DNA from: an uncultured Clostridia bacterium
GTDB taxonomy: Bacteria; Bacillota; Clostridia; Christensenellales; Borkfalkiaceae
Direction: 5' to 3'
Assembly (NCBI GenBank): GCA_947176305.1
Contig: CAMWPZ010000001.1
Span: forward strand, 4,154-68,153
Length of the DNA stretch: 64,000 bases
Each line of letters opens with the position of its first letter. The first letter of the stretch is position 1. Below are positions 25,863-54,408 of this stretch, piece by piece. Below the pieces are notes generated by a model. That model worked only from the letters and a program-made list of their open reading frames with translations, did no database searches and had not been told where the DNA came from. A program made the translations under genes and the position numbers.

Positions 25863-25871
25863 ATTTTACTC

Positions 25872-27371: not shown

Positions 27372-27376
27372 TCTTT

Positions 27377-28504
27377 CTATCCAAAGTATTTTTGCATTAA
27401 TGCTTTTTTTAATGTTTGTAATTTTTCAAGACTTTGCTCGATTCTAATTCTTGTTTTTTGTATCTGCTCAACAAAAGTAGCAAACTTATCTTGTTCGCGA
27501 AGCGGAGGCTCTGATATTTCCATTTTTTTTATAACAGCCTGAGAAATATTGGGTTGCGCTCCACCAGCGCATTGAGAAATCATCCATTCTTTCTTGCTCA
27601 AAATGGCATAAAACAAATACAATGGATTAAAACGCTTGTTAGGCAAAATACCGCACACAGCTTGATTGGAAGTTGTGCTAATTTTAAGTAATCCCACTTG
27701 ACCAGCCGTTGCTCCATACATTGCAACGACTACAGTGTTTTCCGGCATCCATTTTGCAGAGGAGTTTTCAAGTCCTTCTTCAGAAATTCTCTTTTTTATA
27801 TTAAAAATCATACCTTGAGCAACTTCCCCACTGGTCAGCCACGGAATATTACCGTTTTCATAATATTCTGCGTGAGATTTATCAGGCGTACCCCCTGAAG
27901 TTGTCGAAAAAATATCACCAATTTTTATTTTAGTAGTCTTTTGATTTGCAAACATCTTGTTAAATTTAGACTTAACAAGCAAGTCGAGTTTTTCAAGTTG
28001 CTGTTTTCGTTTTTCTATTAAATCGCTAAGCCTATCTAATTTCTTTACAACTTGCGATTGAATTTGTAACGTAGGCAAATAAATATATTTTTGCGTTAAT
28101 GTAGCTTTATTTAAAGTTAATCCCTTTACCGCTTTATTACTGCCCTCTGTCCAATCAATCCCATTAAACAAATAATACAAATAATCTTTATTAAACTGAT
28201 TTTTGCCCTTGTCAATGAATGCCATGATCGCTTCATTTGTATATAACTCACTAGCAGTTATAGCCACCTTTCCAATAGATAACTTAAAGCTCATTAGCAC
28301 TGTGTTGGCAGGAACTTTTTTTATACCACTCTCTTGTACCGCTTTATCGCTAATACATTCTTTAGTGTTAAAAATATATTTATCACAAGCGGATAAGTCT
28401 GAAATTGAAACCCATTTATTTTCGCCTCCCCAATAATCAGAATTGTTACGACTTGGGGTTTTCCCCATTTGCAAATCAAAAACATCCCCTAACCTTACTT
28501 TCAC
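27377..28504 (-). CDS. hsdS: Type I R-M specificity subunit
   Basis: 375 aa with two target-recognition halves, each opening with a GD(V/I)F...G(K/G)TP motif (VRLGDVFDLQMGKTPSR; IKIGDIFSTTSGGTPDK). Coiled spacers (LDRLSDLIEKRKQQLEKLD; IEQSLEKLQTLKKALMQ). ATGA overlap with hsdM. Confidence 0.85.
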   Translation of the reverse strand: MKVRLGDVFDLQMGKTPSRNNSDYWGGENKWVSISDLSACDKYIFNTKECISDKAVQESGIKKVPANTVLMSFKLSIGKVAITASELYTNEAIMAFIDKGKNQFNKDYLYYLFNGIDWTEGSNKAVKGLTLNKATLTQKYIYLPTLQIQSQVVKKLDRLSDLIEKRKQQLEKLDLLVKSKFNKMFANQKTTKIKIGDIFSTTSGGTPDKSHAEYYENGNIPWLTSGEVAQGMIFNIKKRISEEGLENSSAKWMPENTVVVAMYGATAGQVGLLKISTTSNQAVCGILPNKRFNPLYLFYAILSKKEWMISQCAGGAQPNISQAVIKKMEISEPPLREQDKFATFVEQIQKTRIRIEQSLEKLQTLKKALMQKYFG

Positions 28505-30006
28505 AACAAGCCCTCCAATTCGGCGAGACCTAAGGTTATTTCCTTTTCAAGCTCTTGCAGGTCAGCCATAAGCTCTTGCGTGGAAGGATATTTTTCCGCA
28601 ACGTATTCCGTCTTTTTATATTTGTTGATAGACAAATCGTAATCGTTGTCAACAATCTCCTGCTTGTCAACGAAAAAGCTCTGTTCGGTGCGCGCGCGCC
28701 CGTTCTCGGCTTCCAGATTATGAAAGCGCGCAATAATGTCGGGTATATCGTTTTCGGCTACGGACGTACGCTTATCGTCCAAAGACATGCCGTCCGCCTT
28801 CATATCGTAAAACCAAACCTTGTCCGTTCCGCCGTGCCCCGTTTTCGTGAAAACCATTACCGCGGTTGAAACCCCCGCATATGGCTTGAATACTCCCGAA
28901 GGCATTGAAATAATCGCAACAAGGCGGTGGTTTTCTATAATCTCTTTGCGTATAGCTTTATGCGCCGTGGACGAGCCGAAAAGCACGCCGTCGGGCACTA
29001 TGCAGGCGCAACGTCCGCCTGTGCGCAGCATACGCAAAAATAACGTTAAAAACAAAAGCTCGGTCTTTTTCGTCTTGCATACCCTTAACAGGTCGGTCGC
29101 AACTATATCGTAATCGAGGCTACCCTTAAAAGGCGGGTTGGCAAGAATAAGCGAATATTTATCTTTGTCCGTATTCTGGTCGGACAAGCTGTCGCGGTAC
29201 TCTATGTAAGGGTTGCTTATTCCGTGCGTCATCATATTCATCGCGCCGATACGGAGCATAGTTCTGTCCATATCATAGCCCGAAAACATCTTTTCCATAA
29301 GGTGATATAATTTTTCTTTATCGTAAAAAATCTGCTCCTTGTGGTGCTGTTTAAGGTATTCGGCGGCGTTTACCAAAAAGCCCGAAGTGCCGCAGGCGGG
29401 GTCGCAGATTACGTCGTCGGGATTGGGCTGCATCATTTCAACAATCATTTTAATTATGTGGCGCGGCGTGCGGAACTGACCGTTCAGTCCCGATTGGGAA
29501 ATCTTCGAAAGCAAGTACTCGTAAACGTCGCCCTTCGTGTCGTTCGCGTCGTTGTCCTGCATTTTTTCCATAAGCGCGTAAATATTGTCCAGCGCATCGA
29601 TTATTTTAGACAATAACAGCGCCGTGGGTATTTTAAAAATTGCGTCGTCCATATACTTCGAGTAAGCGCTGTTCTTGTCGGAATGAAGCCCCTTGATAAA
29701 CGGGAATACCCATTCCTGAATTATGGAATATACTATGTCAGCAGATAAATCGTGGAAGGAAGACCACTTTAACCGATTACCGTCTATCTTCCTTTCACCG
29801 ACGGTTACTTCGCCCGAAAATATGCTTTCATAGGGCAGTCCGAGCATTGCGCTTTCCTTGGCGCGCAAGTTGTCCGAATAATCCAAGTCGTGAATAAACA
29901 TTAAGTAAGTTATTTGCTCGATAACGTCAAGAGGATTTACAAGTCCGCCCGCCGCAAAAATATCCCAAAGGCTGTCGATTTTGTTTTTTAATTCGCCCGT
30001 AATCAT
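28501..30006 (-). CDS. hsdM: Type I R-M N6-adenine DNA methyltransferase subunit
   Basis: AdoMet motif I ICDPACGTSGFL and motif IV LILANPPFKG. The start is taken at ATG 30006 (MITGELKNKIDSLWD), giving a TAATG junction with the fic stop. The track start at 30027 is an alternative. Confidence 0.9.
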   Translation of the reverse strand: MITGELKNKIDSLWDIFAAGGLVNPLDVIEQITYLMFIHDLDYSDNLRAKESAMLGLPYESIFSGEVTVGERKIDGNRLKWSSFHDLSADIVYSIIQEWVFPFIKGLHSDKNSAYSKYMDDAIFKIPTALLLSKIIDALDNIYALMEKMQDNDANDTKGDVYEYLLSKISQSGLNGQFRTPRHIIKMIVEMMQPNPDDVICDPACGTSGFLVNAAEYLKQHHKEQIFYDKEKLYHLMEKMFSGYDMDRTMLRIGAMNMMTHGISNPYIEYRDSLSDQNTDKDKYSLILANPPFKGSLDYDIVATDLLRVCKTKKTELLFLTLFLRMLRTGGRCACIVPDGVLFGSSTAHKAIRKEIIENHRLVAIISMPSGVFKPYAGVSTAVMVFTKTGHGGTDKVWFYDMKADGMSLDDKRTSVAENDIPDIIARFHNLEAENGRARTEQSFFVDKQEIVDNDYDLSINKYKKTEYVAEKYPSTQELMADLQELEKEITLGLAELEGLL

Positions 30007-31034
30007 TATTCTTTCTCCCTGTTCCAAACGTATTGCGTATAACGGCCGCCGCCGAGTTTAATTATATCGCCGTTTTGCAACAGCTCCGCCAAAGCCCTCT
30101 GAACGGTAATTTCACTTACGTTCGGGCATTGATTTAAAATTTCCGTTTTGGTAATTTTCCCTGACGTGTTTTTTATAATTGCCGCAACCCTGTCCGGCTT
30201 TGAAACGCCTTTTGTTAAAAGCTCAGTCCTTTCGAAGAACTCTTTATAGGCTTTTAATACAATGCCGAGAAAGTAACGTATGAAAGGCAAGTAGTCGTTT
30301 TCATTCTCGTGCCAATCGCTACAGCTTTGCCGTATTGCTTGGCGATAGGTTTCTTGCGATTGTTCGATAAGTTTTTCAATGCTTATATATTTACCGACGA
30401 TATATCCCGCCTGATAAAGTAAAAGTAATGTCAGAAGCCTGCTCATTCGCCCGTTGCCGTTATTTAACGGCTGAACACACAGAAAATCCAGTATCGCCAT
30501 AGGGATTATTATAAGCGGGTCAACTTCGCCGTCTTTTAAAATTTCTTCAAAAGCCGAACATAACCCGTCCACGGCTTGCGGCACTGCTTGCACCTCAACT
30601 GTTACGTATGGCGCGGCGCTTTTGATATTAAAGGCTCTGAACTTGCCCGCCGCCGCGTCGCCGCTGTATTTGTATAGGTTCTGATGAAGCTGTAAAATAA
30701 TGTTGGACTTAAACGGCACGTAGGCGTAGCTTTCGTTTATTGTCGAAAGCACGTCGCGATAGCCTGCTATTTCCTGTTCGTTTCTGTTCTGAGGACGGGT
30801 TTTATCGTTGACGATTTTTTTTAACCGCTCGTCGGATGCGGATACCCCTGCGATAATATTTGAAGCTTCCGTACTTTGCAGCTTGGTGCTCTCCAAAAGC
30901 TGCGTCAAAGCTTCCGCCTTATAATCTACGAAAAAAGCTTGCCTGACTTTGTATTCGTGTATCTTTGTCAATAGGGCGACTATATCCGGCGTCAGCGCCT
31001 TTTGCCATGCCTTGGAGTAATCGAATATATGCAT
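30006..31034 (-). CDS. Fic-family protein with non-canonical active-site motif and C-terminal wHTH
   Basis: 342 aa. The Fic core reads QPLNNGNGRMSR where the canonical motif is H-P-F-x-(D/E)-G-N-G-R-x-x-R. The DNA at 30470-30500 confirms CAG (Gln) at the His position. The C-terminus ITVQRALAELLQNGDIIKLG is wHTH-like. Confidence 0.7.
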   Translation of the reverse strand: MHIFDYSKAWQKALTPDIVALLTKIHEYKVRQAFFVDYKAEALTQLLESTKLQSTEASNIIAGVSASDERLKKIVNDKTRPQNRNEQEIAGYRDVLSTINESYAYVPFKSNIILQLHQNLYKYSGDAAAGKFRAFNIKSAAPYVTVEVQAVPQAVDGLCSAFEEILKDGEVDPLIIIPMAILDFLCVQPLNNGNGRMSRLLTLLLLYQAGYIVGKYISIEKLIEQSQETYRQAIRQSCSDWHENENDYLPFIRYFLGIVLKAYKEFFERTELLTKGVSKPDRVAAIIKNTSGKITKTEILNQCPNVSEITVQRALAELLQNGDIIKLGGGRYTQYVWNREKE

Positions 31035-31517: not shown

Positions 31518-31868
31518 TTATAGTTCAACCACGGTAACCCCGTGATTGCAGACTTTTGAAAGTTGTTCTAACTCTTTATATGTACTTTTAAGATCTCTTG
31601 CTTTGGCATTAAAGATATCAAAATCTTCACCGTTTATCACAGCTTTAACAGTTTCGTTTCTTGCCTGTGCGTTAAGCCACTGTCTGGCTTTTTCTCTTAT
31701 AGCTCCGCCCTTTCCGCTACTACCATAACCGTGGATAACATACAAACACCCGATGCTTCCGCTCTTGGCATTTGCTATACTTGATTTTAACAGTGCAAGC
31801 GCATCGGCACTTGTGGGCATACCAACTTCCAAATTTATTTCTTTAAACCTTTTCATTATCTCTTCCAA
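31518..31868 (-). CDS. Stand-alone Smr-domain protein
   Basis: 116 aa with the Smr signature LYVIHGYGSSGKGGAIREKARQWL (H-G-x-G). The true start may be the internal MKRFKEINLE. Confidence 0.65.
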   Translation of the reverse strand: MEEIMKRFKEINLEVGMPTSADALALLKSSIANAKSGSIGCLYVIHGYGSSGKGGAIREKARQWLNAQARNETVKAVINGEDFDIFNAKARDLKSTYKELEQLSKVCNHGVTVVEL

Positions 31869-32577: not shown

Positions 32578-33081
32578 TTATTTGATAATTGCGTTACTGT
32601 TTACCTTATTAGGCGGTATATGATAGGTATAAATTTCCAAGTCGTGATTTTCGAATATCTTAAATGTTTTCACCCTTACCCCTCCAAGCTTTTCCACCAG
32701 ACGAATGCTTGGAATATTATCATTTCTCACTGAATAAACAAAATATTCTACGTCGCCATGAGCGCTATCTCGTGCTAACAGGCATTTCAAAACTTTATAG
32801 CCTATTCCGCGATTACGGAATTGCTCCTCAATCTCAATTCCTATTACGGGTTTTCTCTCATTTTCGCCAAAAGTTATTTCACCTACAGCCTGACCGTCCA
32901 TTGAAATTTTATAAATATAATGGCTTTTGGTAAGTTCTGAAATTCTTAAAAGCATGTCTTCGAACAAGTCTTGTTTATTAATTTCTTTCAAAGTCTCTTT
33001 TAAAAACTGCTCGCCGTCCTTTGCACTCGACTTATCATTGGTTATTTGTTCAATATCAAAATCGTCAATCTTAAAATTCAT
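32578..33081 (-). CDS. GNAT-family N-acetyltransferase
   Basis: 167 aa with the acetyl-CoA pocket motif QFRNRGIGYKVLKCLL. Confidence 0.75.
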   Translation of the reverse strand: MNFKIDDFDIEQITNDKSSAKDGEQFLKETLKEINKQDLFEDMLLRISELTKSHYIYKISMDGQAVGEITFGENERKPVIGIEIEEQFRNRGIGYKVLKCLLARDSAHGDVEYFVYSVRNDNIPSIRLVEKLGGVRVKTFKIFENHDLEIYTYHIPPNKVNSNAIIK

Positions 33082-33330: not shown

Positions 33331-36300
33331 CTAATTGACTAGCTGGCTTAAAAATACCAATGCCTTATTACGGTCAAGGGTTTCATGAACCTTTTGATTC
33401 TCATAACTGCGTAGACATTTATAACACGAAGGATCACAGTCGCATTCTGACAGAATTTTTATTGCTCTATTAATAACAGCTTTTAAAACGTCGCCCGATT
33501 CGGTTACAAGTCTACGAGAATGCCCAGCCCCGCCGGGAACATCATCATAAATGATTATCTGATGAGAATATTTTCCACCCTTTAATTTGTATGTTAAACA
33601 AGCTTTAATGTCACGTTTTTCGATACTTAATACATCAGAAAAAGCATTCAAAATAGCATACATAACGGAAAGCATAGTCGCGTAATCCGACGTGTCTGTT
33701 TCAAATTCAATTTTTGCAACATCGGTCTTAAATTCATGATGTAAGCTGTACTTATTTAACTTGGTGTTTGCGCAAAATCCTTTCCCGAACGGATTGGCAT
33801 GTTTCGGTCCGTCTTTAATGGTTTCAGCTTTGCGTTTATAATCGATATATTTAATTAATTTATCCGTTTCGTCTGCGGCAATTGTATATCCACACTTTGA
33901 ACATACGTAAAAATCTTCTGTAGATTTCACTACCAGCGAATCGTTTGTTGTAGATTGTACATTTACCTTGATATCGCCGAAGTCATACGAATATGTGCTT
34001 ATCGTATCAGCATTTTTATCACCGATATAAACAGCTTCTGTCCTATACTTTCGCTCCTGCGCAGTTAAAGGCACTGATTTAACATCTTGTTCGGCAATAA
34101 ACCCAGATCTAGGCTCAATACTTTTTTTAAAATCTCTAGAACGCAAAATTTCGCCACAAACCGAACAAGGATGACCATCAATGCTAATTGGCATATTGCT
34201 GTAATTGGTGTGCTTACATTTTGGACATTGTGCAATATATGACATATCAAAATCCGTCATTTCGCTTTTATTTACAATAGGTTTTCTTATGTAACGACTT
34301 GTATACAAGTTACCATCTGCAACAACTTCTGCCGATGGAGCGTACTCGGCAATAGCTACAGACAAATCCCTATTCAAATTCAGAGATTTGAATTCTTTAG
34401 ACGAAATATTTTGCGCCAGTTCCACTGAATCAACGGGGAACCCGTATTTAGGTAAAATATTTCCACGAACCAAGAAATCAATCAGTTCATTGTTTTGATA
34501 TCGTTTTAATTTGTTCTCAATACTGACAGCCGCATTTGCCTCACCAGCTTTAAGTGCTTTTTTGCGTTCCTTTTCCAAATAGTCTACATTCTTTTCGTAA
34601 TCTTCAATTAGTGCGGTAAATCTTCCGCTTTTGCCACAAAAATCTTCTAACCAGCCAAAAGAATCCAATTCTATATTTTGCAAATCCCACAAATCTTTCG
34701 GTATCGATTTTTTAAGTAACGTTTTTAAATCTAATGGTTTTGACTTCACCCACTCTAAAAAGTCTTTATACCCTCCATCATTGATAAATACCTTAGCGTT
34801 ATTTTCTCCATACATATTCTCATGTAACTTCAAGTATAAACTTATAGCAACAGCATAAATATGACGCTTGATTATTTTTTCGTTTGCCAATTTAAACTGT
34901 GGCGGATATATAATACCGCTTATCATCTCTTCTGGATGCTCAAAAAACGTAAAGTCATGTGAACTTAATCTTGCATAGGTGAGCGCAAAGGCTGCGGCTT
35001 TGATACTTCTTCCCGCCCTGCCGACTCTTTGTGCGTAGTTAGATGCAAGGGGTGGAATGTTGCGTAAAAATACAGTTTCCAAATCACCTACGTCAACGCC
35101 CATTTCAAAAGTAGTTGAACACGAAAGAGCATTTATTTCTTTCCGCACAAACTTTTGCTGATACTCTAACGCTTCTTTTTTGGCAAGTTGTGCAGTATGT
35201 TCCTTAATAAACAGTGGTGAAACTTTATTGCTTTCATATAGCATAGCATAATAATTATCTTTACACTGTTTATCCGAATCTAACCGTGCAAGTTTGCCAC
35301 CGCAACGTGGATGTCTACACTTGTTGCCGATATTGAATTGCGTCACCTTATGACACTTATCACACTTCCACAATGTAGCATTCTTTCCCAAATGAACACG
35401 AAGACTACTTGCACGCATAAAATAGCCCCTGCCGTCTGATGTTTGTAGGGGATAATTATTAGGCATCGCCTTACCGGTTAAATAATCCCAATAATTATCT
35501 AAAAAGGCATATGCCCCTTGGTCGTCAACATGAAGGAAATCTTTAACAACCCCCGTTTTATTTTGACGATAATATTTTTTCTCACCGTTTTTCTTTGTAC
35601 ACTCAGTAGGCAAAAACGGATGTGAATTTTTTAATGAAACGTCTTTTGTCTTTGTTACGACTTGTTGAGTTTGAGTAAAGAATATATACTTTCTGTCCTC
35701 ATCATTAATATCAGTTTCTTTTTCTGGTACGATTGCACCTTCACGCACGATTTCAAGTGCCAAATAATCAAGGAAATCACGGGCGGATTCTTTATCCACA
35801 TGATAATTATCAACTACAATATTTACAATCCTGTCATCGTTTCCCAAATAACTGAATTTCAACTTTCCAAATGAGACAAGCGATGTATCGCGTCTACTAT
35901 TATACAATTCATTTAACACCGCAATCCATGCGTTGCGTCTGTTTTCAACACTACTTGAAATTGCAATATCAGCATTGCTTTCCCTGAATAATCTGAGTGT
36001 AGAATAATAATTATCTAAAAGTCCAACAAGCTCACTAACGATTAACCCGTTCGGACGATTAGCCGCTTCCTGTTTGACAATATTCCAAATTCCTCTGCGT
36101 CGCAAGAACTCGCTATAAGAAACTTCCATATGACAAGCAAATTTGGCGGCACCTTGCCTGCTATCGGAAAATACAAGAAATTGGCTTCCGGTTCTGTCTT
36201 TTCTGCGATTACTTGACGAAGATACGCCGAATAAACCCTTCTTAGCACTACTATTTTCTGCTGCGCCTTCAAAAGATATGGAATGCTCTGGTATCTGCTC

Positions 36301-38124
36301 AAATAACGATGTTGCCAAAACGCCCGTCGCCGCCTCATAACCGAGTTGAAGTCTTCTTAAATTCCCATTACAATTTAAGCATCTTTCTTTTTTTGCGCGC
36401 TCAATAAGAATGGGCGCACAATTCCCGCAGGTACACCATTTATTGTGTGATTGATTTTCTTCAATGATTGCCCCACAGTTTTTACACAGCATAAACTTTT
36501 CTGCCGGTTTACGGTTTGCTTCACTTTGCTCGTCAATATCTTCAAATTCCTCTTCGTCGTTGTCTCCAACAATTTGATAGTATTCTCTTACGTCGCTGAT
36601 TCCGGCGCGAACAAGTTTTTTAGTTCCGTCATCTCGTTTACCGATAATTGTAAGTTCACCACAATCATCACACACCCCGACTTCAAACATTTTTATTTCA
36701 CCGTTATACTTGTCTTTGCGCGTCAATGTAAAACTTTGAGGATAATCCAAAGCAATATATCCGCCATCCAACGCCCGTAGAAAATAGTGATAACGTATAT
36801 CTATTAAAAGTTTTCCACACTTTTTAGCCTTAGCGCATTGTGAAATGAATGCAACGGCATTTTGTCGTGTTAAGTGCAGATTTTCCGCTAAATCATCAAG
36901 AGAAATCAGCCCACCCTGTTCACGCATTGTTGCATAAATATCCGATTCAATAATTAAATCATATAATATTTCTTCATCATCACGGGTACTGTCAAAAGAG
37001 ATATTATATTTAGCTAAAATCTGTTTAACAGATTGTTCTTCCGCGGCAAGGTCTGCAAATAATGTTTCAGGATATGTGTACTTGCCCGAGCAATATTGGT
37101 TTATTCTGTCAGCATACACAATATTTTCTTGTTTAAAATCGCAACCAGTTAATTTTGACGCAAACCCAACAACGCGGTCTTTACTTTCGCTTGACTGGTC
37201 ACCAAGCGTTGCCGACGTAAGAATAAATAGAGGTTTGCTGTCACCCAGTCGCGCTTTTAACCTTCCCATAAGTAAAGCTGTTTCTATTCCTACGGCACCG
37301 CCATAAACATGAGCTTCATCCAATACGACAAATTTGAAATTTGCTTTTGAAAATAAAACGTCGTCACCCGGACGGAACAGCAAATGCTCTAACATCGCAT
37401 AATTCGTAAAGAGTATATGCGGAGGATGTTTCTTCATTTCAAGACGAGATAATATCTCGTTTTTTAATCTTGATTGTAATTCAGGGCACTTTTCATTCGC
37501 GTACATTGCCTCATAAAGTTGAACGGCAGCCTTCTCGGTATACTCTGTTTCGCCGTTATAGACACCAAACGTAATTTGAGGATAAGCCAACAATATCTCG
37601 CGCAAGCCCTTAATTTGATCGTTTGCCAATGCGTTCATTGGATAAATGAAAATGGCTCGCACACCGTCATTTAAAGTTCCTGCTTCTTGTTCACGCAACA
37701 ATTCATTGAGAACCGGAATTAAAAAACAGTGCGTTTTACCGCTACCGGTGCCTGTTGAAACAACAACGTTTTCGCCAGAAACAATTTTACTTATCGCTCT
37801 TTCCTGATGTAAGTATAATGGTCTGTCTACGGGTAATTTGGGATGACAATTTAATTTACATTGACTGCGATTACATTGCGTGGTTTTACTCTGTTCCAAT
37901 TCCCGAAAAAGCGGGGAGAGTATACCGGCATCAATAAGTTGTCCAATTGATTTCCCCGTTTTAAACGTATCCTTAATTTCAACAAAAGGACCGTTAGAAA
38001 CAGTCCTATTTAATTCAATCTCAAGTTGCGACTGAATCAGCGGATTACGAAAATGATATGTTGTTGCAATATAACCCATATACTCTTTTTTAATTTCTTC
38101 TGCCGCTTTTGCCGGATTAAACAT
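33331..38124 (-). CDS. Giant DEAH-box SF2 helicase with C-terminal DUF1998/MZB zinc domain (DruE-like)
   Basis: 1597 aa. Motif I VSTGTGSGKTH, Ia IYPMNALANDQ, II VVLDEAHVYGG, III LTSATLG and VI YAQRVGRAGR. C-terminal IIYDDVPGGAGHSRRL...CDCDPSCYKCLRSYENQ matches DUF1998. Several internal CxxC...CxxC ribbons. Confidence 0.75.
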   Translation of the reverse strand: MFNPAKAAEEIKKEYMGYIATTYHFRNPLIQSQLEIELNRTVSNGPFVEIKDTFKTGKSIGQLIDAGILSPLFRELEQSKTTQCNRSQCKLNCHPKLPVDRPLYLHQERAISKIVSGENVVVSTGTGSGKTHCFLIPVLNELLREQEAGTLNDGVRAIFIYPMNALANDQIKGLREILLAYPQITFGVYNGETEYTEKAAVQLYEAMYANEKCPELQSRLKNEILSRLEMKKHPPHILFTNYAMLEHLLFRPGDDVLFSKANFKFVVLDEAHVYGGAVGIETALLMGRLKARLGDSKPLFILTSATLGDQSSESKDRVVGFASKLTGCDFKQENIVYADRINQYCSGKYTYPETLFADLAAEEQSVKQILAKYNISFDSTRDDEEILYDLIIESDIYATMREQGGLISLDDLAENLHLTRQNAVAFISQCAKAKKCGKLLIDIRYHYFLRALDGGYIALDYPQSFTLTRKDKYNGEIKMFEVGVCDDCGELTIIGKRDDGTKKLVRAGISDVREYYQIVGDNDEEEFEDIDEQSEANRKPAEKFMLCKNCGAIIEENQSHNKWCTCGNCAPILIERAKKERCLNCNGNLRRLQLGYEAATGVLATSLFEQIPEHSISFEGAAENSSAKKGLFGVSSSSNRRKDRTGSQFLVFSDSRQGAAKFACHMEVSYSEFLRRRGIWNIVKQEAANRPNGLIVSELVGLLDNYYSTLRLFRESNADIAISSSVENRRNAWIAVLNELYNSRRDTSLVSFGKLKFSYLGNDDRIVNIVVDNYHVDKESARDFLDYLALEIVREGAIVPEKETDINDEDRKYIFFTQTQQVVTKTKDVSLKNSHPFLPTECTKKNGEKKYYRQNKTGVVKDFLHVDDQGAYAFLDNYWDYLTGKAMPNNYPLQTSDGRGYFMRASSLRVHLGKNATLWKCDKCHKVTQFNIGNKCRHPRCGGKLARLDSDKQCKDNYYAMLYESNKVSPLFIKEHTAQLAKKEALEYQQKFVRKEINALSCSTTFEMGVDVGDLETVFLRNIPPLASNYAQRVGRAGRSIKAAAFALTYARLSSHDFTFFEHPEEMISGIIYPPQFKLANEKIIKRHIYAVAISLYLKLHENMYGENNAKVFINDGGYKDFLEWVKSKPLDLKTLLKKSIPKDLWDLQNIELDSFGWLEDFCGKSGRFTALIEDYEKNVDYLEKERKKALKAGEANAAVSIENKLKRYQNNELIDFLVRGNILPKYGFPVDSVELAQNISSKEFKSLNLNRDLSVAIAEYAPSAEVVADGNLYTSRYIRKPIVNKSEMTDFDMSYIAQCPKCKHTNYSNMPISIDGHPCSVCGEILRSRDFKKSIEPRSGFIAEQDVKSVPLTAQERKYRTEAVYIGDKNADTISTYSYDFGDIKVNVQSTTNDSLVVKSTEDFYVCSKCGYTIAADETDKLIKYIDYKRKAETIKDGPKHANPFGKGFCANTKLNKYSLHHEFKTDVAKIEFETDTSDYATMLSVMYAILNAFSDVLSIEKRDIKACLTYKLKGGKYSHQIIIYDDVPGGAGHSRRLVTESGDVLKAVINRAIKILSECDCDPSCYKCLRSYENQKVHETLDRNKALVFLSQLVN

Positions 38125-40837
38125 TTTTCACCTCAGTAAAATGATAGTTTGTTGCAGTATAAATTTGACTTGACTGTGGACTATATAAATTACCCTTCGT
38201 ATCGCACTTCAATTTAGTGTAATTCCCCACTGCGTCTTTTACATAAACTTGTAAAGCAATAGAAGAAAGTATAACAATATGACACTTCGAATACCCACAC
38301 ACGTCTGTTTTATTGCCGGTTGCATCCCTATAATGTAGTCGCGCTGAATATGTATCATTATCTTGTCCACGAACCAATTCTGTAATATAATATCCCGTTG
38401 AAATCAACTTCCATGAATCCCCTCCGCTCCCGCAAATCGGATTTATTTTTAAAACAAGATTGTTTAATTTGAGTTTTTCTCTGTCGCCGAAGACAAACTC
38501 ACCTTCCCATAATATCTTCTCGCCACTTGCAAATAACCCTGTAGAAGGAGAACTTACCTTTATCCAGTAAATACCTTCGTCGACATCAGACAAGTCACCG
38601 TTAATCAATTCAGTAGATTTTTTAACTATTTCTTCTTTACCAATGCGTTTAAGACAAATATTGAAGTAGGGCTTCTTCCCGCCGATAAAGCACTTATCTC
38701 CAATAAAAAGCAACTTACTATTATCAACAGCGAATGGTGGTTCTTGCAAAAAATGCTCTACCGTCGTTACCGAGCATATTTCCTTTTGTTCACTATTTCC
38801 ATCAAATTTAAAAAAGAACAATAGATCCTTGCAATTTTCATTTGCAAATATGTGTTTTCCGATTTCGTATTTTAACGAAGCATTTCGTGCAATTTCCTGC
38901 AATTTTCCATCAGCCAAACAATACAACTTTGTTTTGTCGATTTCTATCGGAGATTGCACCTCGAATACTGACCCATTGCTAAAATAGGTTTTATACCAAA
39001 CAATATTCGAAATTGGACCGTAGTGCCATTCTCCCATGTCAATACGCCACTTAATTTGGGGTACAGTGATAAATAAATGCCCATTACCCAACTTGCAAAA
39101 TACCGTTTCTTGCCCCGTTTCCCAAGTCAAATCTTTATGCTGTAGCCCAACGCTAACCCTAACACTTTTATCGTCATCTCCAAAATATATTTGTTTGGAA
39201 AAACCAATATGGAGTTTTTTGATTAAAACAATATCAGTATGAATCAGTTCTTTTTCTGTAAGGTGTGAATGTACGATAAATTCGCTAAGAACATATTGGG
39301 GAAATAACTTCGTTATGTCAACTATAAAATAGCCTTCATCTATATTGGGTGCTAAATCAGACAATAAAGTACTATTACCGTTTACCCTTAACTCCAAAGC
39401 GTTAACAGAAGTATTTTGAGGGAGCAACAAGTTTATTCTATTGCCAAACACTTTACAATCGTGCTCCTCATATTTCCATTTGCAAATCCCGGATTCCCCT
39501 ACAAGTTGCACTTTATTTGTTACTACTTTTGAATCCATTTCATTGGTAAAGAACACTTGCCTGTTATCACTACCTATTACTTCACCATCGTCAGGATAAA
39601 TATTATATAAATTAGCTGCAACCGTGTTTATAACAGTCGGAGTCTGCAAAGAATCAATTGATAACGAGTAAACAAAATAATTTCCAACTTTCAGAATCCT
39701 ATTTGTCAGCTCTTTTTCGTTATCAAATAATATAAAATCTTTTTCAATTGTTTTATCAAAAATGGTTTTCCCATTTTCAGCAATTTCTACCCGTATATTT
39801 ATATCAGATACTTCGCGTAGCAAATCGTTCAATTTTATATCTTGTTGAGCAGATGTTACAGTCATCTCACCAGTACGCGTAAATATTTCCTTTGAGACAA
39901 TGGGGCTTGATTGATTACAAATATATACCGACAACCAAAGTTTCGGATATTCTCCACGCGCAAATCGAATTGGTGGAACACATAAATATGTATCCTCTTC
40001 TCTGCGAAGGAATTTTATGGAAATATTTTGCTTCGGTACAGATTGTATTGGGAACTTGGATGTGTTAGGCACTGGATCGGGATCTTGCTTTTTTGCCCAC
40101 CAGTCCTTAACAAGATTTATTAAATAATCGTCATTCGACAAAGTGTGACCATGATATAAGAAATCCATTGCGGTTAAGACTTTATCGATTAATTCAGTGA
40201 AGCAATTGCGTGTTTTATATCCCAACGCCATACTGCGAAGCCCTATCTTGATTCCATACACTCCGCTTCCGATAGTGACCCCGACGTTTGCCCCGCTAAG
40301 GCTTTGCGCCACAGCACAAAATCCACTTGTTGCTATATCGCAAATCTCGGTATCCGAATCCGTATAAACAAAGTCCAAATCTTTTTTATATATGTTATAA
40401 ATAAATTCAAAGAACGAGCTTATGCTTTTATATGGAGCAAAAGCATGCATCAACACCGTAGCATAATACTTGTCTTTTGTGTCAGCCATAAGAATTTTTC
40501 CACTATCAACAAGTCCTTTAATTAAATTTGTATAGGCACTATATAGTTTTGAGCTATCACCGCCGTTCAGCATCGTTCCCAAAATATACTGCCAAAATCC
40601 TTTATCACTATCATCATCGCTTTTCCATCTTTTGGCAAGTTCAACTAATGTTGCAAAATGTATTTCATCATCGCCTGATAAATAAGAACCGATACCGAAT
40701 GCATAAGCGCGAGAATATTTTTTTGTATACGCAAAAAGCTTCTGAAACTCGTCGTCGGAATAAGAAACGATGCCTATAAGATTTTGTTCAGCAATCGCTT
40801 TGTGAACCTTTTCTTTCAATGCCTCACTAATGTCCAT
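38117..40837 (-). CDS. 906-aa protein of unknown function, partner of the DEAH/DUF1998 helicase (DruH-like by position and size)
   Basis: It overlaps the helicase gene by 8 nt. A helical N-terminus of about 260 aa is followed by repeated beta-rich modules. No nucleotide-binding or nuclease motif recognised. Confidence 0.45.
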   Translation of the reverse strand: MDISEALKEKVHKAIAEQNLIGIVSYSDDEFQKLFAYTKKYSRAYAFGIGSYLSGDDEIHFATLVELAKRWKSDDDSDKGFWQYILGTMLNGGDSSKLYSAYTNLIKGLVDSGKILMADTKDKYYATVLMHAFAPYKSISSFFEFIYNIYKKDLDFVYTDSDTEICDIATSGFCAVAQSLSGANVGVTIGSGVYGIKIGLRSMALGYKTRNCFTELIDKVLTAMDFLYHGHTLSNDDYLINLVKDWWAKKQDPDPVPNTSKFPIQSVPKQNISIKFLRREEDTYLCVPPIRFARGEYPKLWLSVYICNQSSPIVSKEIFTRTGEMTVTSAQQDIKLNDLLREVSDINIRVEIAENGKTIFDKTIEKDFILFDNEKELTNRILKVGNYFVYSLSIDSLQTPTVINTVAANLYNIYPDDGEVIGSDNRQVFFTNEMDSKVVTNKVQLVGESGICKWKYEEHDCKVFGNRINLLLPQNTSVNALELRVNGNSTLLSDLAPNIDEGYFIVDITKLFPQYVLSEFIVHSHLTEKELIHTDIVLIKKLHIGFSKQIYFGDDDKSVRVSVGLQHKDLTWETGQETVFCKLGNGHLFITVPQIKWRIDMGEWHYGPISNIVWYKTYFSNGSVFEVQSPIEIDKTKLYCLADGKLQEIARNASLKYEIGKHIFANENCKDLLFFFKFDGNSEQKEICSVTTVEHFLQEPPFAVDNSKLLFIGDKCFIGGKKPYFNICLKRIGKEEIVKKSTELINGDLSDVDEGIYWIKVSSPSTGLFASGEKILWEGEFVFGDREKLKLNNLVLKINPICGSGGDSWKLISTGYYITELVRGQDNDTYSARLHYRDATGNKTDVCGYSKCHIVILSSIALQVYVKDAVGNYTKLKCDTKGNLYSPQSSQIYTATNYHFTEVKNV

Positions 40838-40906
40838 AATTTCTCCTTTGTGAATTATATCAAATTTCCTATGTAATCAACGTTATTGCTTTTAAAAATG
40901 AAAACG

Positions 40907-41452
40907 TTATATATACTTTTCAACGGGATATCCAAGCAGCAACATTATTTTAAGCTCATCAAGACTATCTTTAAGCGCATTGTGCGTTTCCTGATATGCG
41001 GTGTCGCCGGTAAGCATTCTTAAAATTGATTGAACACCATATCCTGATTTAAGTCGCCCAGTTGAACACAGGGGCATTCCACGAGGGATCTTATGATTAT
41101 ATTGGATATACGCCGCTAATTTCATTATATCGAACCAATGCATGCCACCAAGTTCCGGTAGATGATTTTTATCAAATACGGAGTTATACGCAAATACTTT
41201 ACTAACGCGGTTGTTTTTGCACCAATCAATCAGATTATTAAGTGCTTCTAAACGAGAACAAATTATAGGGTTTTTAATGTCGCGATGCAGAAGGGCACCT
41301 AAATACATCCCTCCTGCACGATATTCGGGATCTAATATGTAATACTTTGATTCAAGTGGTAACATAGTATCACTGTCCGCTATAACCGCCCCAATAGACA
41401 TGACCTCATCTGTCCACGTGGTTTCAGTATCTATTACAACAAACTTCTCCAC
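40907..41452 (-). CDS. DEDDh 3'-5' exonuclease (DnaQ-like)
   Basis: 181 aa with a GTG start. Exo motifs VVIDTETTW (D-x-E), FAYNSVFDKNHL (D) and THNALKDSLDE (H-x4-D). Confidence 0.7.
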   Translation of the reverse strand: MEKFVVIDTETTWTDEVMSIGAVIADSDTMLPLESKYYILDPEYRAGGMYLGALLHRDIKNPIICSRLEALNNLIDWCKNNRVSKVFAYNSVFDKNHLPELGGMHWFDIMKLAAYIQYNHKIPRGMPLCSTGRLKSGYGVQSILRMLTGDTAYQETHNALKDSLDELKIMLLLGYPVEKYI

Positions 41453-41574: not shown

Positions 41575-43259
41575 TCATAAAATACCTTTTGACAAACCTA
41601 ACGCAACAACGTAGCTTGCACATTGCAAAAAATGCACGTGAGAAAGCTCTGATACAAATTTTAATTCATATACTGTATCACCCCTAACCGCATCCGCAAG
41701 GCCTTTGGCAAGAAAAGCTTTTTTACCAGTTTCATAGGCAAAAGTGATTTTACACTCTGTCTGCACATTTTCATCGGGACTCAATGTTGTGTTTAACCTT
41801 TTAATTAGTGCCTTCTTTTCTTTCTTTTGAGCAAACGGCGTTGTAACCTGTTGCAGATACCTTAGCTGCCTAGTTTCTAATCTCGTTAATAAAAGTATCT
41901 TTCTGTCAAGTGAACCTGCATCTTTTTTTGAATATAATCCCTTTTCTTGTGGATGTAAGGTAAAATAAAACTCAAGGCTCTTATCTATATCATATCCACT
42001 GAAAAATACTGCCTCCTGATATATTCCTATACAGGGAGAAAGGTCAATCAACTCGTCCCTGTTTTTAATTTTTATATCTTCTAAATTTTTACTTTCAACC
42101 TCTTTTATATTCAATAAAGAGTAGCATTCTTCTATATCCTCAACATATTTAAAATCGAACATAGTAGAAATATCTATATCTTGAAAAATACATTTTCTTC
42201 AGGTTTAGACTTTAACGTGCTTTCGGAAAGTTTTTCTTCACCATTTGAAACAAAAATTATTTTCTCTTTGCCCCTACTATCTGCGATGCAGAAAATATTG
42301 CGCAGTATTTCAAATGACTGCCGGTGTTTATCTATGCGTACAGCCCAATAACTTTCTGTAAAATCAAATACTATGCATATATTCCGTTCTTAACCCTTTG
42401 CTGCTGTCAAAAGTAGTAAAAATTGCGCATGAGCTATCAGGCTCTACCGCCTTATTACCGTCATCGTCTTGTATACTTGAATATAAGGTTCTTTTATTGA
42501 AAATATCAGGATAAGTATCTTCAAGTTCGTTTTGAACATCTGACATGGCTCCGGTTCTTGAGCCGAGGCATAATATATCTTTCGGATTTTTGTCGGCAAG
42601 AAAAGCAATTACCTCTTCAGTATTCATGTTAATTATTTCGCAATTTCCGTTTAACCCAATGATTGGTTTACCCCAAATCTGTCCAAGTGTTTCCGCGTGA
42701 TTGGCAGAGAGTCTAAAACATTTTTAAACGTAAGCTTTTCATAATCACATAAAAACTTATCAATAAATTCAGGCACGTTGAGTACAGTTTTATCATATAT
42801 TTTCTGTTCCATGCCCACTACGGCGACTATCTGCATACAGGGATTAGTCGATTTTATGTATTCAAGCATTTCGGCAAATTCCTGCTCAATATCTTGATAT
42901 TCGTCTAAAATGAGGATATCAAAATGAGGTAGAGGTGACTTTACCCGAAGAAATTTTTGAACCAAATCATGAATACCGGCACTTATATTTTGTTTCTTAA
43001 GCATTGAAAACGCAAAACCGTGGTAATTAGTTACGGTAATTAATCGCCTTTTTATCTTCTTGCGCGCATCAAGTTTTAAAAGCTTGTTATAAGTAAGATA
43101 TAAAATTTTACAATTTAATGGAAGCTCTTCGCACAAGTGCTGTATAGCAGTTATTTTACCGCTACCTATACAGGCATCGACAAGTATATTTTTGCCTTGC
43201 TTAGCACCTTCAATAAATTTAAGTTGTTCATCGGATAAGTTAATTTTAAAATTAGACAT
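41575..43259 (-). pseudogene. UvrD-type SF1 helicase fused to a RecB/Cas4-type PD-(D/E)xK nuclease, disrupted at three or more points
   Basis: Fragments in three frames. 43259..42651 carries Walker A CIGSGKIT and motif II ILILDEYQD. 42627..42364 carries FTTFDSSKGL. About 42390..42174 reads ERNICIVFDFTESYW...IIFV then TAG. 42162..41575 carries nuclease motifs GLADAV, VYELKF and FLQCASY (QxxxY). Lesions: a frameshift in the T5/A5 run at 42721-42725, a 1-nt frame change near 42391, and TAG at 42176..42174. The reading frame also continues 41 codons past the TGA at 41575. Confidence 0.65.
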
Positions 43260-43274
43260 GCTTATACTCTTAAT

Positions 43275-45788
43275 TTATGAAAAATTGATATATTCCTCAA
43301 TTAAATTTAAATAATGCAAAGGTACCGGTAAGTTGGTTACAGAATTATATTCAGGAGAAAGATACCTTAACTGGTTCAAGAAGTTTATAACTTCAAATGA
43401 ATCATCATTTTCACATAAACTTAAAGGAAAATATTCTGATAACTTTTTTCCTTTATATGATTTATTAGAATTAGAAAAGCTATACTCTTTATTCCCATCA
43501 CTGTATGTCCTATCGTTCCTCTTTTCGGTAACACTTGCGTAATAAACTTCCCTATATTTAAAAATTCCATCAGCAGATCCGGTCGCGTTATAGCCATCGG
43601 TAAAATAATAATTAGGTATCTCCTCATTATCCCTGATTCTTACAACTCGAAGTTTAGAATTATTCAAGTTAAATGAAACTGAACAAATCTTGCTGCCTAT
43701 ATCGATATTATAAGGTCTATAATCGCTCATAAAAGAATACGTGCTTATTTTTTTATTAGAAATTCCCGGCCACAACTCACTTCTAACAAATCCATCACCG
43801 GATACAATTACAATTGCATCTTGATAGCGATAATAATTTTCCAAGCCTTTAATTTTTTGCTCTATATATCTTTTTGATGCTTCAAGACACAGCTTGTCAC
43901 AATCCCTGTTCATTGATAGTTTACAAAATTCTATACAAGCTTGATAATAGCTCGTTGGTAAGCCATTATTCACCACTGGGCTTTCAACAGTAATTTGCCT
44001 GTCGTTTATATCATACTTTACCAACATAGGTACAGCACGTATAGTTGTACCCGACATGGTTTTTACATTTGAATGCGCACCAATAGCCAAAACGGGATAT
44101 CTTAAAAATTTATCAAGTTTAGTAGCGCGTTTTGTATAGCCAAATTGGCGAAGTAAATCATATATCGCAACCGATATTTTATGTGGCATCCCGTTAACCT
44201 CTTTTATATCGTTTTCCTCTATTGGATTAATAAACTGAGTAACGCGATTAGTCAATGCAAAGCCACAACGTAACAGGTTTTTCGCATCTTTAACGTTTTT
44301 ATCGTCTTGGTTTTTGGGTAGGATTATAATACTACCGACCATTAAATTCTTTGGAGCCTGTCCTATGCTTTCACTAACTTGCTTAATCCTCTCTGTTCTT
44401 TTGGATATGTTATTGTAATCTTGAATTAAAATAGGATCAGCAAAATTTTTTAATGGAAGCTTTTGTATATCTATTCCAAAATCTTCAGTATTTTTATCAA
44501 TTATAACCCTTAAACTATCTTCTATTTTTTGCGCCAATTCATTATCATTGCTTAACGAATAGATTTCTATTCTCGCCCCGCTAAAACCCGTCTTGGATAA
44601 GCATTCACAAATATCAATCCCATTTGGGGCCCATGTATCTTTGTTTTCTTTTAATGGCGCGGGATTTAATCTCGCAGACCTTGCTTTTACTTTAATTAGT
44701 GGATCGCTCTTTGATACTGATTCTTTAATTAATTCATAAATCGCATTATAAAGCGCAACTTTATCAAGAGCGCTTATTCCCGTTCCGATTTTAGATTCCC
44801 ACGCATTGCTGTTTTGTGTTGAACGAGTGCAATAAATCTGCGGATTACTTTTTGTTTCATCATTGTAAAGCTCTAATCTATTCAAAACGTCATCTGCTTT
44901 CGGTAAACTATTAGGGTACGCAAAGTTGTAACAGCTTTCATCGGCATCTTTCCAAACTACTTGATCCTTAATATAGTCATAGAACATAGGAATCTTATAG
45001 TAAATAGGCTTGTTATTGTGTTTAACATAAACACTCATGTTGTTTTTTAAATACTTTTTTGAACGCGCCGATGTATTTTTAAATATTCTTCTGCTACAGT
45101 TTAAAAGCAACATCGAAGAAGTAGTATTCTGTCCCGGAATTGTTTGTAGCCCAAAAGAAAACACGTAGGCATATAAGTCGCCTTTATATCCTTTAATAAC
45201 TTGCGACATCAACTCATTGCGCCCAGAATAATTCAACACCAACTCTGTATTGTCGTAAACAATAGATTTACCAATCATACTCTCCATCAATTTAAGGCAA
45301 AAGCCGTTGTAAGCATATTGGCTTGTTATTATTCCGTTTTCGTCAATAATCTCCAAATATTCGGTATTAATATAATTTAACAACTCTTGCGGATTTATCA
45401 AGTTGATAAATTTAGTTAATGCCTCTTGCACCCCATCATTCTTTTGATACTTAACATAAAATGATTGTGCCGCCGCTTGCAAATTAATGCAAATATCTTG
45501 GCATACATATTTGTCTATTTCCTTTAAGCAAACAATCCACTTTGAATCATCGCTTCCCTTGCGCATACTGTTAATTTCAATTAACCCATGCACCCAGTTG
45601 GCGCAAATTTGATTGAGCGCACTGCATAAAGGTAAATTATACTTATCGTAGTCATATTTTGGATTTGCCGTAATTGCTAGTTCAACCAAGCATTCCTTCC
45701 ATAAAGGAGGAAATCCAACAGTATAAGTTTTAATCGTTAAAGCTTTCGGGATAAAAGTCATCATCTGAAGCTGTTTTTGTTGACTCAT
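43275..45788 (-). CDS. pPIWI-RE-type Argonaute-like protein
   Basis: 837 aa with no P-loop. The C-terminal third carries PIWI-like strands: PVLAIGAHSNV, AIVIVSGDGFVRS and the terminal LPVPLHYLNLIEEY (compare human AGO2 GADVTH, YRDGVSEGQ, PAPAYYAHLVAFRARY). It is the third gene after the REase and the DinG-like helicase. The start is uncertain (45788, 45764 or 45761), and all candidates overlap the helicase gene end. Confidence 0.6.
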   Translation of the reverse strand: MSQQKQLQMMTFIPKALTIKTYTVGFPPLWKECLVELAITANPKYDYDKYNLPLCSALNQICANWVHGLIEINSMRKGSDDSKWIVCLKEIDKYVCQDICINLQAAAQSFYVKYQKNDGVQEALTKFINLINPQELLNYINTEYLEIIDENGIITSQYAYNGFCLKLMESMIGKSIVYDNTELVLNYSGRNELMSQVIKGYKGDLYAYVFSFGLQTIPGQNTTSSMLLLNCSRRIFKNTSARSKKYLKNNMSVYVKHNNKPIYYKIPMFYDYIKDQVVWKDADESCYNFAYPNSLPKADDVLNRLELYNDETKSNPQIYCTRSTQNSNAWESKIGTGISALDKVALYNAIYELIKESVSKSDPLIKVKARSARLNPAPLKENKDTWAPNGIDICECLSKTGFSGARIEIYSLSNDNELAQKIEDSLRVIIDKNTEDFGIDIQKLPLKNFADPILIQDYNNISKRTERIKQVSESIGQAPKNLMVGSIIILPKNQDDKNVKDAKNLLRCGFALTNRVTQFINPIEENDIKEVNGMPHKISVAIYDLLRQFGYTKRATKLDKFLRYPVLAIGAHSNVKTMSGTTIRAVPMLVKYDINDRQITVESPVVNNGLPTSYYQACIEFCKLSMNRDCDKLCLEASKRYIEQKIKGLENYYRYQDAIVIVSGDGFVRSELWPGISNKKISTYSFMSDYRPYNIDIGSKICSVSFNLNNSKLRVVRIRDNEEIPNYYFTDGYNATGSADGIFKYREVYYASVTEKRNDRTYSDGNKEYSFSNSNKSYKGKKLSEYFPLSLCENDDSFEVINFLNQLRYLSPEYNSVTNLPVPLHYLNLIEEYINFS

Positions 45789-50481: not shown

Positions 50482-50510
50482 TTGAACAAATTGAAAAATT
50501 GTAGTATAAT
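50482..50510 (+). promoter_or_regulatory. Candidate sigma-A promoter of the DUF262 gene
   Basis: TTGAAC (50482-50487), 17-nt spacer ending in TG, TATAAT (50505-50510). GGAG at 50531-50534 precedes the ATG at 50545. Confidence 0.5.
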
Positions 50511-50544
50511 AAATCTACTAATTTTCAAATGGAGCAATAAGTTT

Positions 50545-54407: not shown

Positions 54408-54408
54408 T

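Follow-up and report, generated by a model that had tools for sequence, protein, structure and literature searches.

Druantia type III is a two-gene anti-phage system in which a large protein, DruH, is encoded directly upstream of the helicase DruE. In subtype III-A, represented by the E. coli and P. aeruginosa systems (structures 9TU7 and 9TUD), a DruH of 1119 amino acids (aa) is paired with a DruE of about 2100 aa carrying two C-terminal PLD-like domains, whereas in the compact subtype III-B (M. smegmatis MSMEG_1253/1254; Desulfatirhabdium butyrativorans, locus L034) DruE is 1667-1708 aa long and ends at its MZB module without PLD domains. Cryo-electron microscopy (DruH structures 9TUD, 28XY and 29DR) has shown DruH to consist of an alpha-helical N-terminal domain, six immunoglobulin (Ig)-like domains and an alpha-helical C-terminal domain, the last of which contacts DruE and, together with Ig5, binds single-stranded DNA (ssDNA) or ATP. 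A "type III-like" helicase branch, most often without any nuclease domain, was also mentioned by Bell et al. In a stretch of 64,000 nucleotides from an uncultured Clostridia bacterium (contig CAMWPZ010000001.1; the whole stretch is called the window), an earlier note had taken a helicase gene and the gene of a 906-aa protein upstream of it (the partner) for a DruH-DruE-like pair of Druantia type III, and had called the Druantia mechanism poorly understood, a statement since overtaken by several structural and biochemical papers on Druantia III from 2025-26.

We have found that the gene order and the predicted architecture of the partner do resemble those of DruH-DruE, but that no search identified the partner as a DruH and that the helicase lies outside the type III clade. 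Probably the two genes make up a self-contained anti-phage module within the Druantia lineage, forming a distinct clade in which a compact, nuclease-less DruE is joined by an obligate partner that has no detectable relation to DruH but is built on a DruH-like plan. We infer the defence role of the pair from homology and genomic context.

The helicase and its partner gene

Both ORFs (open reading frames) described by the earlier note are real and overlap by 8 nt as it had said; that they lie on the minus strand it had not stated. The features of the pair are the following.

38117..40837, minus strand: partner gene, 906 aa (ORF), of an unannotated family always found upstream of a compact DruE
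33331..38124, minus strand: helicase gene, 1597 aa, assigned by PADLOC, Pfam and PDB sequence matches to a compact DruE-clade, YprA/MrfA-like superfamily 2 (SF2) helicase with no C-terminal nuclease domain
38117..38124, minus strand: 8-nt overlap ATGTTTAA of partner stop codon and helicase start codon (ORF coordinates)
40843..40880, minus strand: candidate promoter and ribosome-binding site for the pair, read from the sequence of the 69 nt that precede the partner gene
37165..37827, minus strand: RecA1 lobe, about residues 100-320, with Walker A GSGKT (127), DEAH (269) and SAT (304) (Pfam and motif reading)
36370..36672, minus strand: zinc-binding CxxC cluster, residues 485-585, in the large RecA1-RecA2 insertion (cysteines 100% conserved)
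35302..35364, minus strand: zinc ribbon CDKC...CRHPRC, residues 921-941, just before RecA2 (motif reading and conservation)
35008..35208, minus strand: RecA2/Helicase_C core, residues 973-1039, with motif VI QRVGRAGR (1032) (Pfam and motif reading)
33892..34227, minus strand: zinc motifs in the OB-fold region, CPKC 1300, CSVC 1320 and CSKC 1408 (motif reading and conservation)
33412..33663, minus strand: MZB (DUF1998) four-cysteine module, residues 1488-1571 (PF09369; C1561, C1563, C1567 and C1570 conserved)
40073..40837, minus strand: predicted all-alpha N-terminal domain of the partner, residues 1-255 (AlphaFold2, pLDDT 88.3 and pTM 0.86 for the domain alone)
38120..40042, minus strand: predicted beta-rich region of the partner, residues 266-906, with about 6-7 Ig-like beta-sandwich modules (AlphaFold2, full-length)

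The overlap suggests translational coupling of the partner and the helicase, and a GAGGTG ribosome-binding site lies 5' of the helicase ATG. Upstream of the partner gene, TTGATT is followed after 15 nt by TGATATAAT (an extended -10) and then by AGGAG 5 nt before the partner ATG; a consensus scan for promoters and terminators gave no enrichment over shuffles, and this element is a candidate only.

In Pfam searches the helicase matched DEAD (3e-24), Helicase_C (3.8e-9) and MZB/DUF1998 (PF09369, 5.7e-14, residues 1488-1571). All of the motifs quoted in the earlier note were present (GSGKT 127, DEAH 269 in VVLDEAHVYGG, SAT 304, QRVGRAGR 1032 and CDCDPSCYKC 1561), and the extra CxxC ribbons, of which it had counted at least four, are real: cysteines 485/488, 547/550, 564/566, 582/585, 921/924, 936/941, 1300/1303, 1320/1323 and 1408/1411 are 100% conserved in 22 aligned orthologues. 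As the helicase motifs and about 24 zinc-binding cysteines in total are invariant in this alignment, the helicase gene is under purifying selection. Zinc-binding modules have been described for Druantia and ARMADA helicases and are shared by the ARMADA-Druantia lineage (PMC12458937); the cluster at 485-585 corresponds to these modules, and the motifs of the OB region are analogous to the two zinc motifs in the OBZ domain of E. coli DruE (10.64898/2026.05.13.724758). Zinc-binding CxxC pairs were present both in the stretch that separates the two RecA lobes (485-585 and 921-941) and in the OB region (1300-1323 and 1408-1411). Since the protein ends 26 residues past the MZB module, it has neither of the PLD1 and PLD2 nuclease domains that close III-A DruE; aligned to 9tu7, it reaches no further than residue 1718 of the 2108-residue chain.

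The matches of the helicase to PADLOC models were as follows.

DruE1: 553 bits, 6.2e-166
DruE3: 552 bits, in two stretches, 7.2e-166
DruE2: 409 bits, 1e-122
DruE4: 333 bits, 8e-100
DrmA: 51 bits, 1.7e-14
DpdJ: 4.9e-22
BrxH: 2.5e-18

Among PDB sequences the best match was E. coli DruE 9tu7 (262 bits, 6e-77), against 79 bits (1.7e-21) for YprA 6znp. With a fused MZB module and its best scores against DruE profiles, the helicase has the signature of Druantia DruE, and as judged from these comparisons it belongs to the DruE clade and not to MrfA/YprA or DrmA, in agreement with the DruE-like reading of the earlier note. Its placement among type III DruE did not hold. On both DruE3 and DruE1 the scores of the window helicase and its orthologues are about 550 bits, spread over two stretches, whereas DruH-linked DruEs reach 2108-2180 bits over their full length on DruE3, whether long (2060-2104 aa) or compact (1708 aa, Desulfatirhabdium). 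BLAST gave the helicase an identity of 22-28% with canonical type III DruE, in two separate blocks, and of 32% over its full length with the helicase of a clostridial sister clade described below; its score against the E. coli ARMADA II helicase, about 270 bits, was lower than that against type III DruE. In a neighbour-joining tree, which left out type I, II and IV reference sequences, the window clade and the clostridial clade stood apart from the three DruH-linked DruE.

The partner had no match in PADLOC (E<=10), Pfam, NCBIfam or, by phmmer, the PDB sequences. A profile of 32 partner sequences drew from the PDB only a 16-bit match to DesK, which was judged to be due to chance. At 90% identity the family to which the partner belongs comprises more than 211 clusters, every one of them named "hypothetical", and at 50% identity it has 539 representatives (294 at E<=1e-30), mostly from gut, termite-gut, digester and sediment anaerobes; none of the 120 members listed carries a precomputed Pfam domain, and no description of the family was found in the papers searched.

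A lack of homologues of the partner linked to such helicases elsewhere was one of two observations that, together, the earlier note would have taken as refuting its reading, the other being a helicase that clusters with MrfA/YprA or DrmA. When one genome per species was taken, 30 loci were obtained, and in every one of the 27 that continue past the 3' end of the partner gene an orthologous DruE (57-93% identical, full-length or truncated by the contig end) was encoded directly downstream on the same strand. These 27 loci span Bacillota, Bacteroidota, Spirochaetota, metagenome-assembled genomes (MAGs) of Pseudomonadota, Patescibacteria and Mycoplasmatota; at least 12 other loci show the same 8-nt overlap, and the locus most similar to that of the window (89-93% identity) comes from a Christensenella MAG of mouse gut (L001). 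A large partner directly upstream of druE is therefore a constant of the family (27 of 27 loci), as in the two-gene operon of Druantia type III. Pairwise distance matrices of partner and helicase were strongly correlated (r = 0.94; Mantel 0/2000), with the partner diverging faster (mean identity 0.47, versus 0.71 for the helicase), which argues that the two are inherited and constrained as one unit. DruH was likewise reported to diverge faster than DruE (PMC13192584).

Some members of the partner family are longer (1300-1680 aa; P0411, P0393, P0387, P0421, P0340; loci L041:432-5021 and L042:3643-7572), through N-terminal fusion of DUF3427 or of two to three RNA-polymerase alpha-CTD domains. 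The alpha-CTD is a helix-hairpin-helix DNA-binding domain, and such fusions would bring the partner into the vicinity of DNA. The long forms, too, are followed by a compact DruE, and the 8-nt overlap is found again in L042.

A few further observations were made on the family. At one locus (L004:5338-6404, Proteobacteria MAG) the genes of partner and helicase stand about 1.07 kb apart, and in a Gammaproteobacteria MAG (L029) both genes look broken into several frames; the former may be an insertion and the latter a pseudogenised copy. A search of a plasmid collection with the partner gave no match. A phage collection gave one weak match of 92 residues (L044:2573-2848, MT836674.1), 30% identical to the conserved N-terminal core of the partner (residues 73-158) and lying inside a 133-aa ORF; the sequence is a 9-kb unverified "Bacteriophage sp." contig from human faeces, and no DruE is present on it.

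Relation of the partner to DruH and to other described systems

The earlier note had described the partner as a helical N-terminus followed by beta-rich modules, and this was matched by the full-length AlphaFold2 model (32-sequence alignment, pLDDT 82.8), in which residues 1-255 are helical and beta strands continue to the last residue, without a C-terminal helical domain. Many family-invariant residues lie in the N-terminal domain (W71, W82, T127, H131, P135, R201, W246, W247). In Foldseek searches of the PDB, the N-terminal domain alone had no fold match at E<=0.001, and the full-length model retrieved from the PDB and BFVD only generic tandem arrays of Ig, FN3 and Big domains, with TM scores below 0.15. 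The similarity to baseplate J-like proteins that was reported for DruH was not reproduced for the partner, its J-like matches being weak and at ranks 26 and 49; the DruH structure 9TUD was absent from the Foldseek matches, in a library (cut-off April 2026) that may not include it. Conservation was highest in the N-terminal domain and the first beta module and lowest in the C-terminal third, the pattern expected if the distal Ig-like modules carry specificity.

According to the model, the partner would share the first two parts of DruH, the helical N-terminal domain and the Ig-like array, and lack the third. Canonical DruH is also longer than the 900-1000 aa that the earlier note had given for it, at about 1100-1170 aa (E. 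coli 1119, M. smegmatis 1132), which leaves the partner some 210 aa shorter. By our estimate the gap of 213 aa is roughly the size of the DruH C-terminal part that is missing here, the domain boundaries not being given in any paper.

Despite this likeness of plan, no sequence relation to DruH was detected. The partner itself had no DruH match in PADLOC at E<=10, none of its 32 aligned relatives matched a PADLOC DruH3 model (at least 10 models) at E<=1, and neither PF27201 (YjiT_N) nor PF27205 (YjiT_2nd) was found on any of the 120 listed members. These searches do recognise remote DruH, as the E. coli plasmid DruH (1119 aa) matched 10 DruH3 models and the Desulfatirhabdium DruH, at 22% identity, matched 8; among 45 DruH relatives, 43 carry both Pfam families, one only PF27205 and one, a truncated protein, neither, and relatives at only 22% identity still keep them. 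Profile comparisons by hhalign (32, 109 and 356 partner sequences against 24 or 43 DruH/YjiT sequences) were made with whole proteins and with sliced domains, N-terminal against N-terminal and Ig region against Ig region, and also by way of the clostridial sister family; probabilities were 0.05-0.4% with E 0.13-0.8, even with a profile of Neff 7.1. With hmmsearch no score exceeded 0.8 bits in either direction, the 356-sequence superfamily profile included. On these comparisons the partner has no detectable relation to DruH, and the helicase lies outside the type III clade; it is therefore the fallback offered by the earlier note, a DruE-class helicase with a new partner, that applies. Since canonical DruH goes with a different DruE clade, the window pair is a separate lineage.

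It is nevertheless conceivable, though doubtful, that the partner is an extremely diverged DruH orthologue that lacks the C-terminal domain, in which case the pair would be a subtype of Druantia type III, in or beside III-B or the type III-like branch of Bell et al., and would contain no new partner. The gene order and overlapping arrangement are those of DruH-DruE, the plan of a helical N-terminal domain followed by about six Ig-like domains is the same in the model of the partner, the difference in length is close to the estimated size of the DruH C-terminal part, and a mostly nuclease-free branch has been reported. The top hhalign alignment, itself insignificant, was also co-linear over the N-terminal domains in 4 of the 5 runs covering both, and pairs W82, T127 and P135 of the partner with W88, T131 and P139 of DruH, residues found essential in mutagenesis (PMC13192584); we take this possible correspondence as a lead and not as evidence. 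What speaks against orthology is the uniform failure of the hhalign, hmmsearch, DruH3 and YjiT-family searches, together with the fact that bona fide DruH already pairs with a compact DruE of 1708 aa that belongs to the canonical type III clade, outside of which the window helicase falls.

Of the systems described so far, compact III-B comes closest, and the helicase is of the same lineage as that of Druantia type III. In III-B, as at this locus, a large partner comes first in a co-oriented, overlapping or abutting pair, DruE ends at MZB without PLD domains, the partner (here in its predicted model) combines a helical N-terminus with Ig-like modules and diverges faster, and the setting is a defence island. 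The window partner differs in that it is not of the YjiT/DruH family, is about 210-230 aa shorter and has no C-terminal helical domain in its model, and the helicase is set apart by its low, two-stretch identity to canonical type III DruE and its score of about 550, against more than 2100, bits on DruE3. The window family occurs mainly in anaerobic Bacteroidota and Bacillota, rather than Pseudomonadota or Actinomycetota. Subtype III-A shares with the pair the helicase core, zinc modules, MZB, two-gene operon and general partner plan; it differs in its PLD1 and PLD2 domains and in a partner unrelated in sequence, and the DruH residues involved with ssDNA and ATP (R1031, H1062, R1064, K1067) sit in the C-terminal region that has no counterpart in the modelled partner. 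The window clade may fall inside the type III-like branch of Bell et al.; in the searched text of PMC12458937, neither this clade nor the III-B representative GIH50614.1 was found.

A sister family in Clostridia has the same gene order and overlap (C. butyricum pNPD4_2, WP_071981758 of 1069 aa and WP_071981757 of 1559 aa; Aminipila luticellarii), and its partner is homologous to that of the window (hhalign 98.8%, E 4e-17, 756 columns). It is distinguished by an extra N-terminal segment of about 165 aa and forms a separate subclade of more than 374 clusters at 90% identity, which is also unannotated and not called DruH by PADLOC. The sister loci (L032:3783-11668 on the C. butyricum pNPD4_2 megaplasmid and L040:10001-17888 in Aminipila luticellarii) encode a partner of about 1069 aa and a helicase of about 1560 aa; the sister system is abundant in Clostridia, with some clusters of more than 900 member sequences.

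MrfA-MrfB (YprA-YprB) has the same YprA-family SF2 core with an OB-CON-MZB canopy; however, MrfA is about 750 aa long without insertions, the window helicase is 1597 aa and stands in a context of defence rather than repair, and of the 27 loci related to the window pair, 26 have no MrfB-type partner, so that a module of a ~750-aa helicase with a conserved MrfB-type exonuclease is not what is found here. ARMADA I/II and DISARM also use YprA-like helicases of the defence branch with zinc modules, but in the window MZB is fused to the helicase and there is no separate DrmB; no BrxHII-like helicase or PglX-like methyltransferase flanks the pair in the window, L039, L040 or L042. For DruA-D, DruM/F/G and DruF/DruL there was no PADLOC match in the partner or in seven other neighbouring genes scanned. 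The pair accordingly lacks the DruH-family partner and the type III DruE clade that would make it type III, and it does not belong to Druantia types I, II or IV (type IV as defined in PMC8565338), MrfAB, DISARM or ARMADA. Matches on actinobacterial plasmids proved to be ARMADA I/II, and a Ralstonia match looks like canonical type III.

Proposed mode of action

In the mechanism that we propose, the helicase would load on exposed single-stranded or forked phage DNA, as its homology with characterised DruE suggests, and would translocate 3'-to-5', unwinding the duplex by means of its RecA core, zinc modules and MZB cluster; from homology with E. coli and P. aeruginosa DruE, its function should depend on the MZB cysteines. 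The partner, presumably co-translated from the overlapping upstream gene, most likely plays by analogy the part of a DruH-like sensor or adaptor that would license or direct the helicase. Recognition of a phage protein or DNA structure could be mediated by the variable Ig-like modules, with the conserved N-terminal domain carrying a signalling or possibly a cryptic catalytic function. As neither protein contains a recognisable nuclease, clearance may rely on the unwinding or sequestering of replication intermediates, on host nucleases, or on an unrecognised activity of the partner.

There is precedent for defence by a DruE without PLD domains. A truncated E. coli DruE (1-1723) restores defence (10.64898/2026.05.13.724758), and in M. 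smegmatis DruH together with a DruE of 1667 aa defends and is activated by a minor tail protein (PMC13316683).

Several points weigh against the proposal. In P. aeruginosa DruE needs its PLD nuclease, as D1740A abolishes defence, so a nuclease-free system may require another effector. Published accounts of DruH conflict, presenting it as an ssDNA binder without nuclease activity, as a 3'-5' exonuclease, or as a protein sensor with a dimer-dependent nuclease, and an analogy with DruH therefore does not fix the mechanism of the partner. Neither a catalytic nor a binding motif was recognisable in the partner, no structural neighbour of its N-terminal domain was found in the PDB, and its role is assigned by analogy. 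Furthermore, a partner without the DruH C-terminal domain would have to use other surfaces for coupling to the helicase and for any DNA binding.

A further reading, tentative and rather unlikely, is that the partner is a non-homologous sensor or adaptor with a new alpha-helical fold that was recruited independently, and that together with the nuclease-free DruE it forms a minimal Druantia-like system, defending without a dedicated nuclease or through new catalysis by its N-terminal domain. If true, this would reveal a widespread defence system, so far not called, among the Bacteroidota and Bacillota of the gut and of anaerobic habitats, and a natural experiment on which Druantia activities are dispensable.

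Genomic setting and significance

A self-contained defence module of the Druantia lineage, the reading that we favour, is also consistent with the surroundings of the pair, which lies in a low-GC island (GC content 0.30-0.43 from 26000-64000; about 0.50 over the 26 kb with which the window begins). The window contains no tRNA gene that could be found. The neighbouring features are listed below.

22572-30027, minus strand: type I restriction-modification operon with an inserted DRT4 (PADLOC); the GC drop starts in this region
22572-25862, minus strand: HsdR
25872-27371, minus strand: DRT type 4 reverse transcriptase between hsdR and hsdS (PADLOC Drt4 2.7e-203)
27377-28504, minus strand: HsdS
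28501-30027, minus strand: HsdM
30006-31034, minus strand: Fic/DOC protein, SoFic-like (PADLOC SoFic 1.5e-26), overlapping the hsdM start by 22 nt
31518-31868: small Smr gene, between the SoFic and helicase genes
32578-33081: GNAT gene, between the SoFic and helicase genes
40907-41452, minus strand: DEDDh-type 3'-5' exonuclease-like protein, 181 aa (PADLOC DEDDh 4.5e-9; DTE...FD...HNALKD intact)
41575-42162, minus strand: 195-aa protein with a sub-threshold PD-(D/E)xK_3 match (18.6 bits, cutoff 22)
42651-49921 region, minus strand: pPIWI-RE three-gene system, complete
48803-49921, minus strand: restriction endonuclease of pPIWI-RE
45730-48810, minus strand: DinG-like ATPase of pPIWI-RE
43275-45788, minus strand: pPIWI
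42651-43259, minus strand: 202-aa protein after pPIWI-RE, resembling only the N-terminal part of a UvrD/GajB helicase
50482-52302, plus strand: GmrSD-family enzyme (PADLOC HEC-05 6.4e-184)
52377-59386, minus strand: run of BspA-type leucine-rich-repeat proteins

The GmrSD-family enzyme is the sole plus-strand ORF with a family match among ORFs of at least 100 aa scanned from 20 kb to the window end. One of the leucine-rich-repeat proteins (55080-57749) is a fusion of a family 4 glycosyltransferase with Sel1 repeats and leucine-rich repeats. Defence genes surround the pair in other genomes as well: in 18 other loci, 125 neighbouring proteins match 172 PADLOC families at E<=1e-10, among them type I restriction endonuclease, pAgo, SIR2-APAZ and PDC candidates. 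Some partner-DruE loci adjoin conjugative-transposon genes, and the distribution is patchy across phyla. The canonical compact Druantia III of Desulfatirhabdium butyrativorans (L034:17913-21325) adjoins a type III CRISPR-like RAMP/Csx19 cluster and has genes for AbiEi and ParE nearby.

Two of the neighbours of the pair raise the question of a larger functional unit, of MrfA-MrfB-like kind, to which the DEDDh-like (40907-41452) and PD-(D/E)xK-like (41575-42162) genes would supply the nuclease. The natural partner of MrfA, MrfB, is a 3'-5' exonuclease of the DEDDh type; the DEDDh-like gene is co-oriented with the pair and lies 69 nt upstream of the partner gene, its product matches the DEDDh model at 4.5e-9 with the DxE...D...Hx4D motifs intact, and both genes are kept in the closest relative, L001. 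Neither, however, has a tblastn match in the other 26 pair-carrying loci, a candidate promoter-like element and a strong ribosome-binding site stand between the DEDDh gene and the partner gene, and the PD-(D/E)xK match stays below its threshold. A larger unit is therefore improbable, and the two neighbours, being absent from the other loci, were rejected as components of the system. That the helicase is instead a housekeeping DNA-repair helicase of the MrfA/YprA type, with an unrelated or structural gene upstream and no defence system at all, is scarcely credible, for although it shares the YprA-family core and MZB and matches YprA 6znp (1.7e-21), it has double the length of YprA and a 640-aa zinc-rich insertion of the kind that is typical for the defence branch, matches DruE far more strongly than YprA, is set in a low-GC island (0.35 versus 0.50) packed with defence genes, is patchily distributed across phyla, at some loci beside conjugative-transposon genes, and has defence genes for neighbours in other genomes.

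Current annotation misses the system type at this locus, as PADLOC v2 calls only an orphan DruE in the window. The partner family, with its 539 clusters at 50% identity, is common enough to affect censuses of defence systems in Bacteroidota and Clostridia. Five reports on Druantia type III from 2026 disagree on the role of DruH and on the need for the PLD nuclease of DruE. The window clade is naturally without the PLD domains, the DruH C-terminal domain and a detectable DruH sequence signature, and yet its two-gene unit is conserved and co-evolving. The pair thus offers a natural minimal variant for testing Druantia function, and the clade could show the irreducible core of the Druantia mechanism and how a DruE helicase couples to a different partner.

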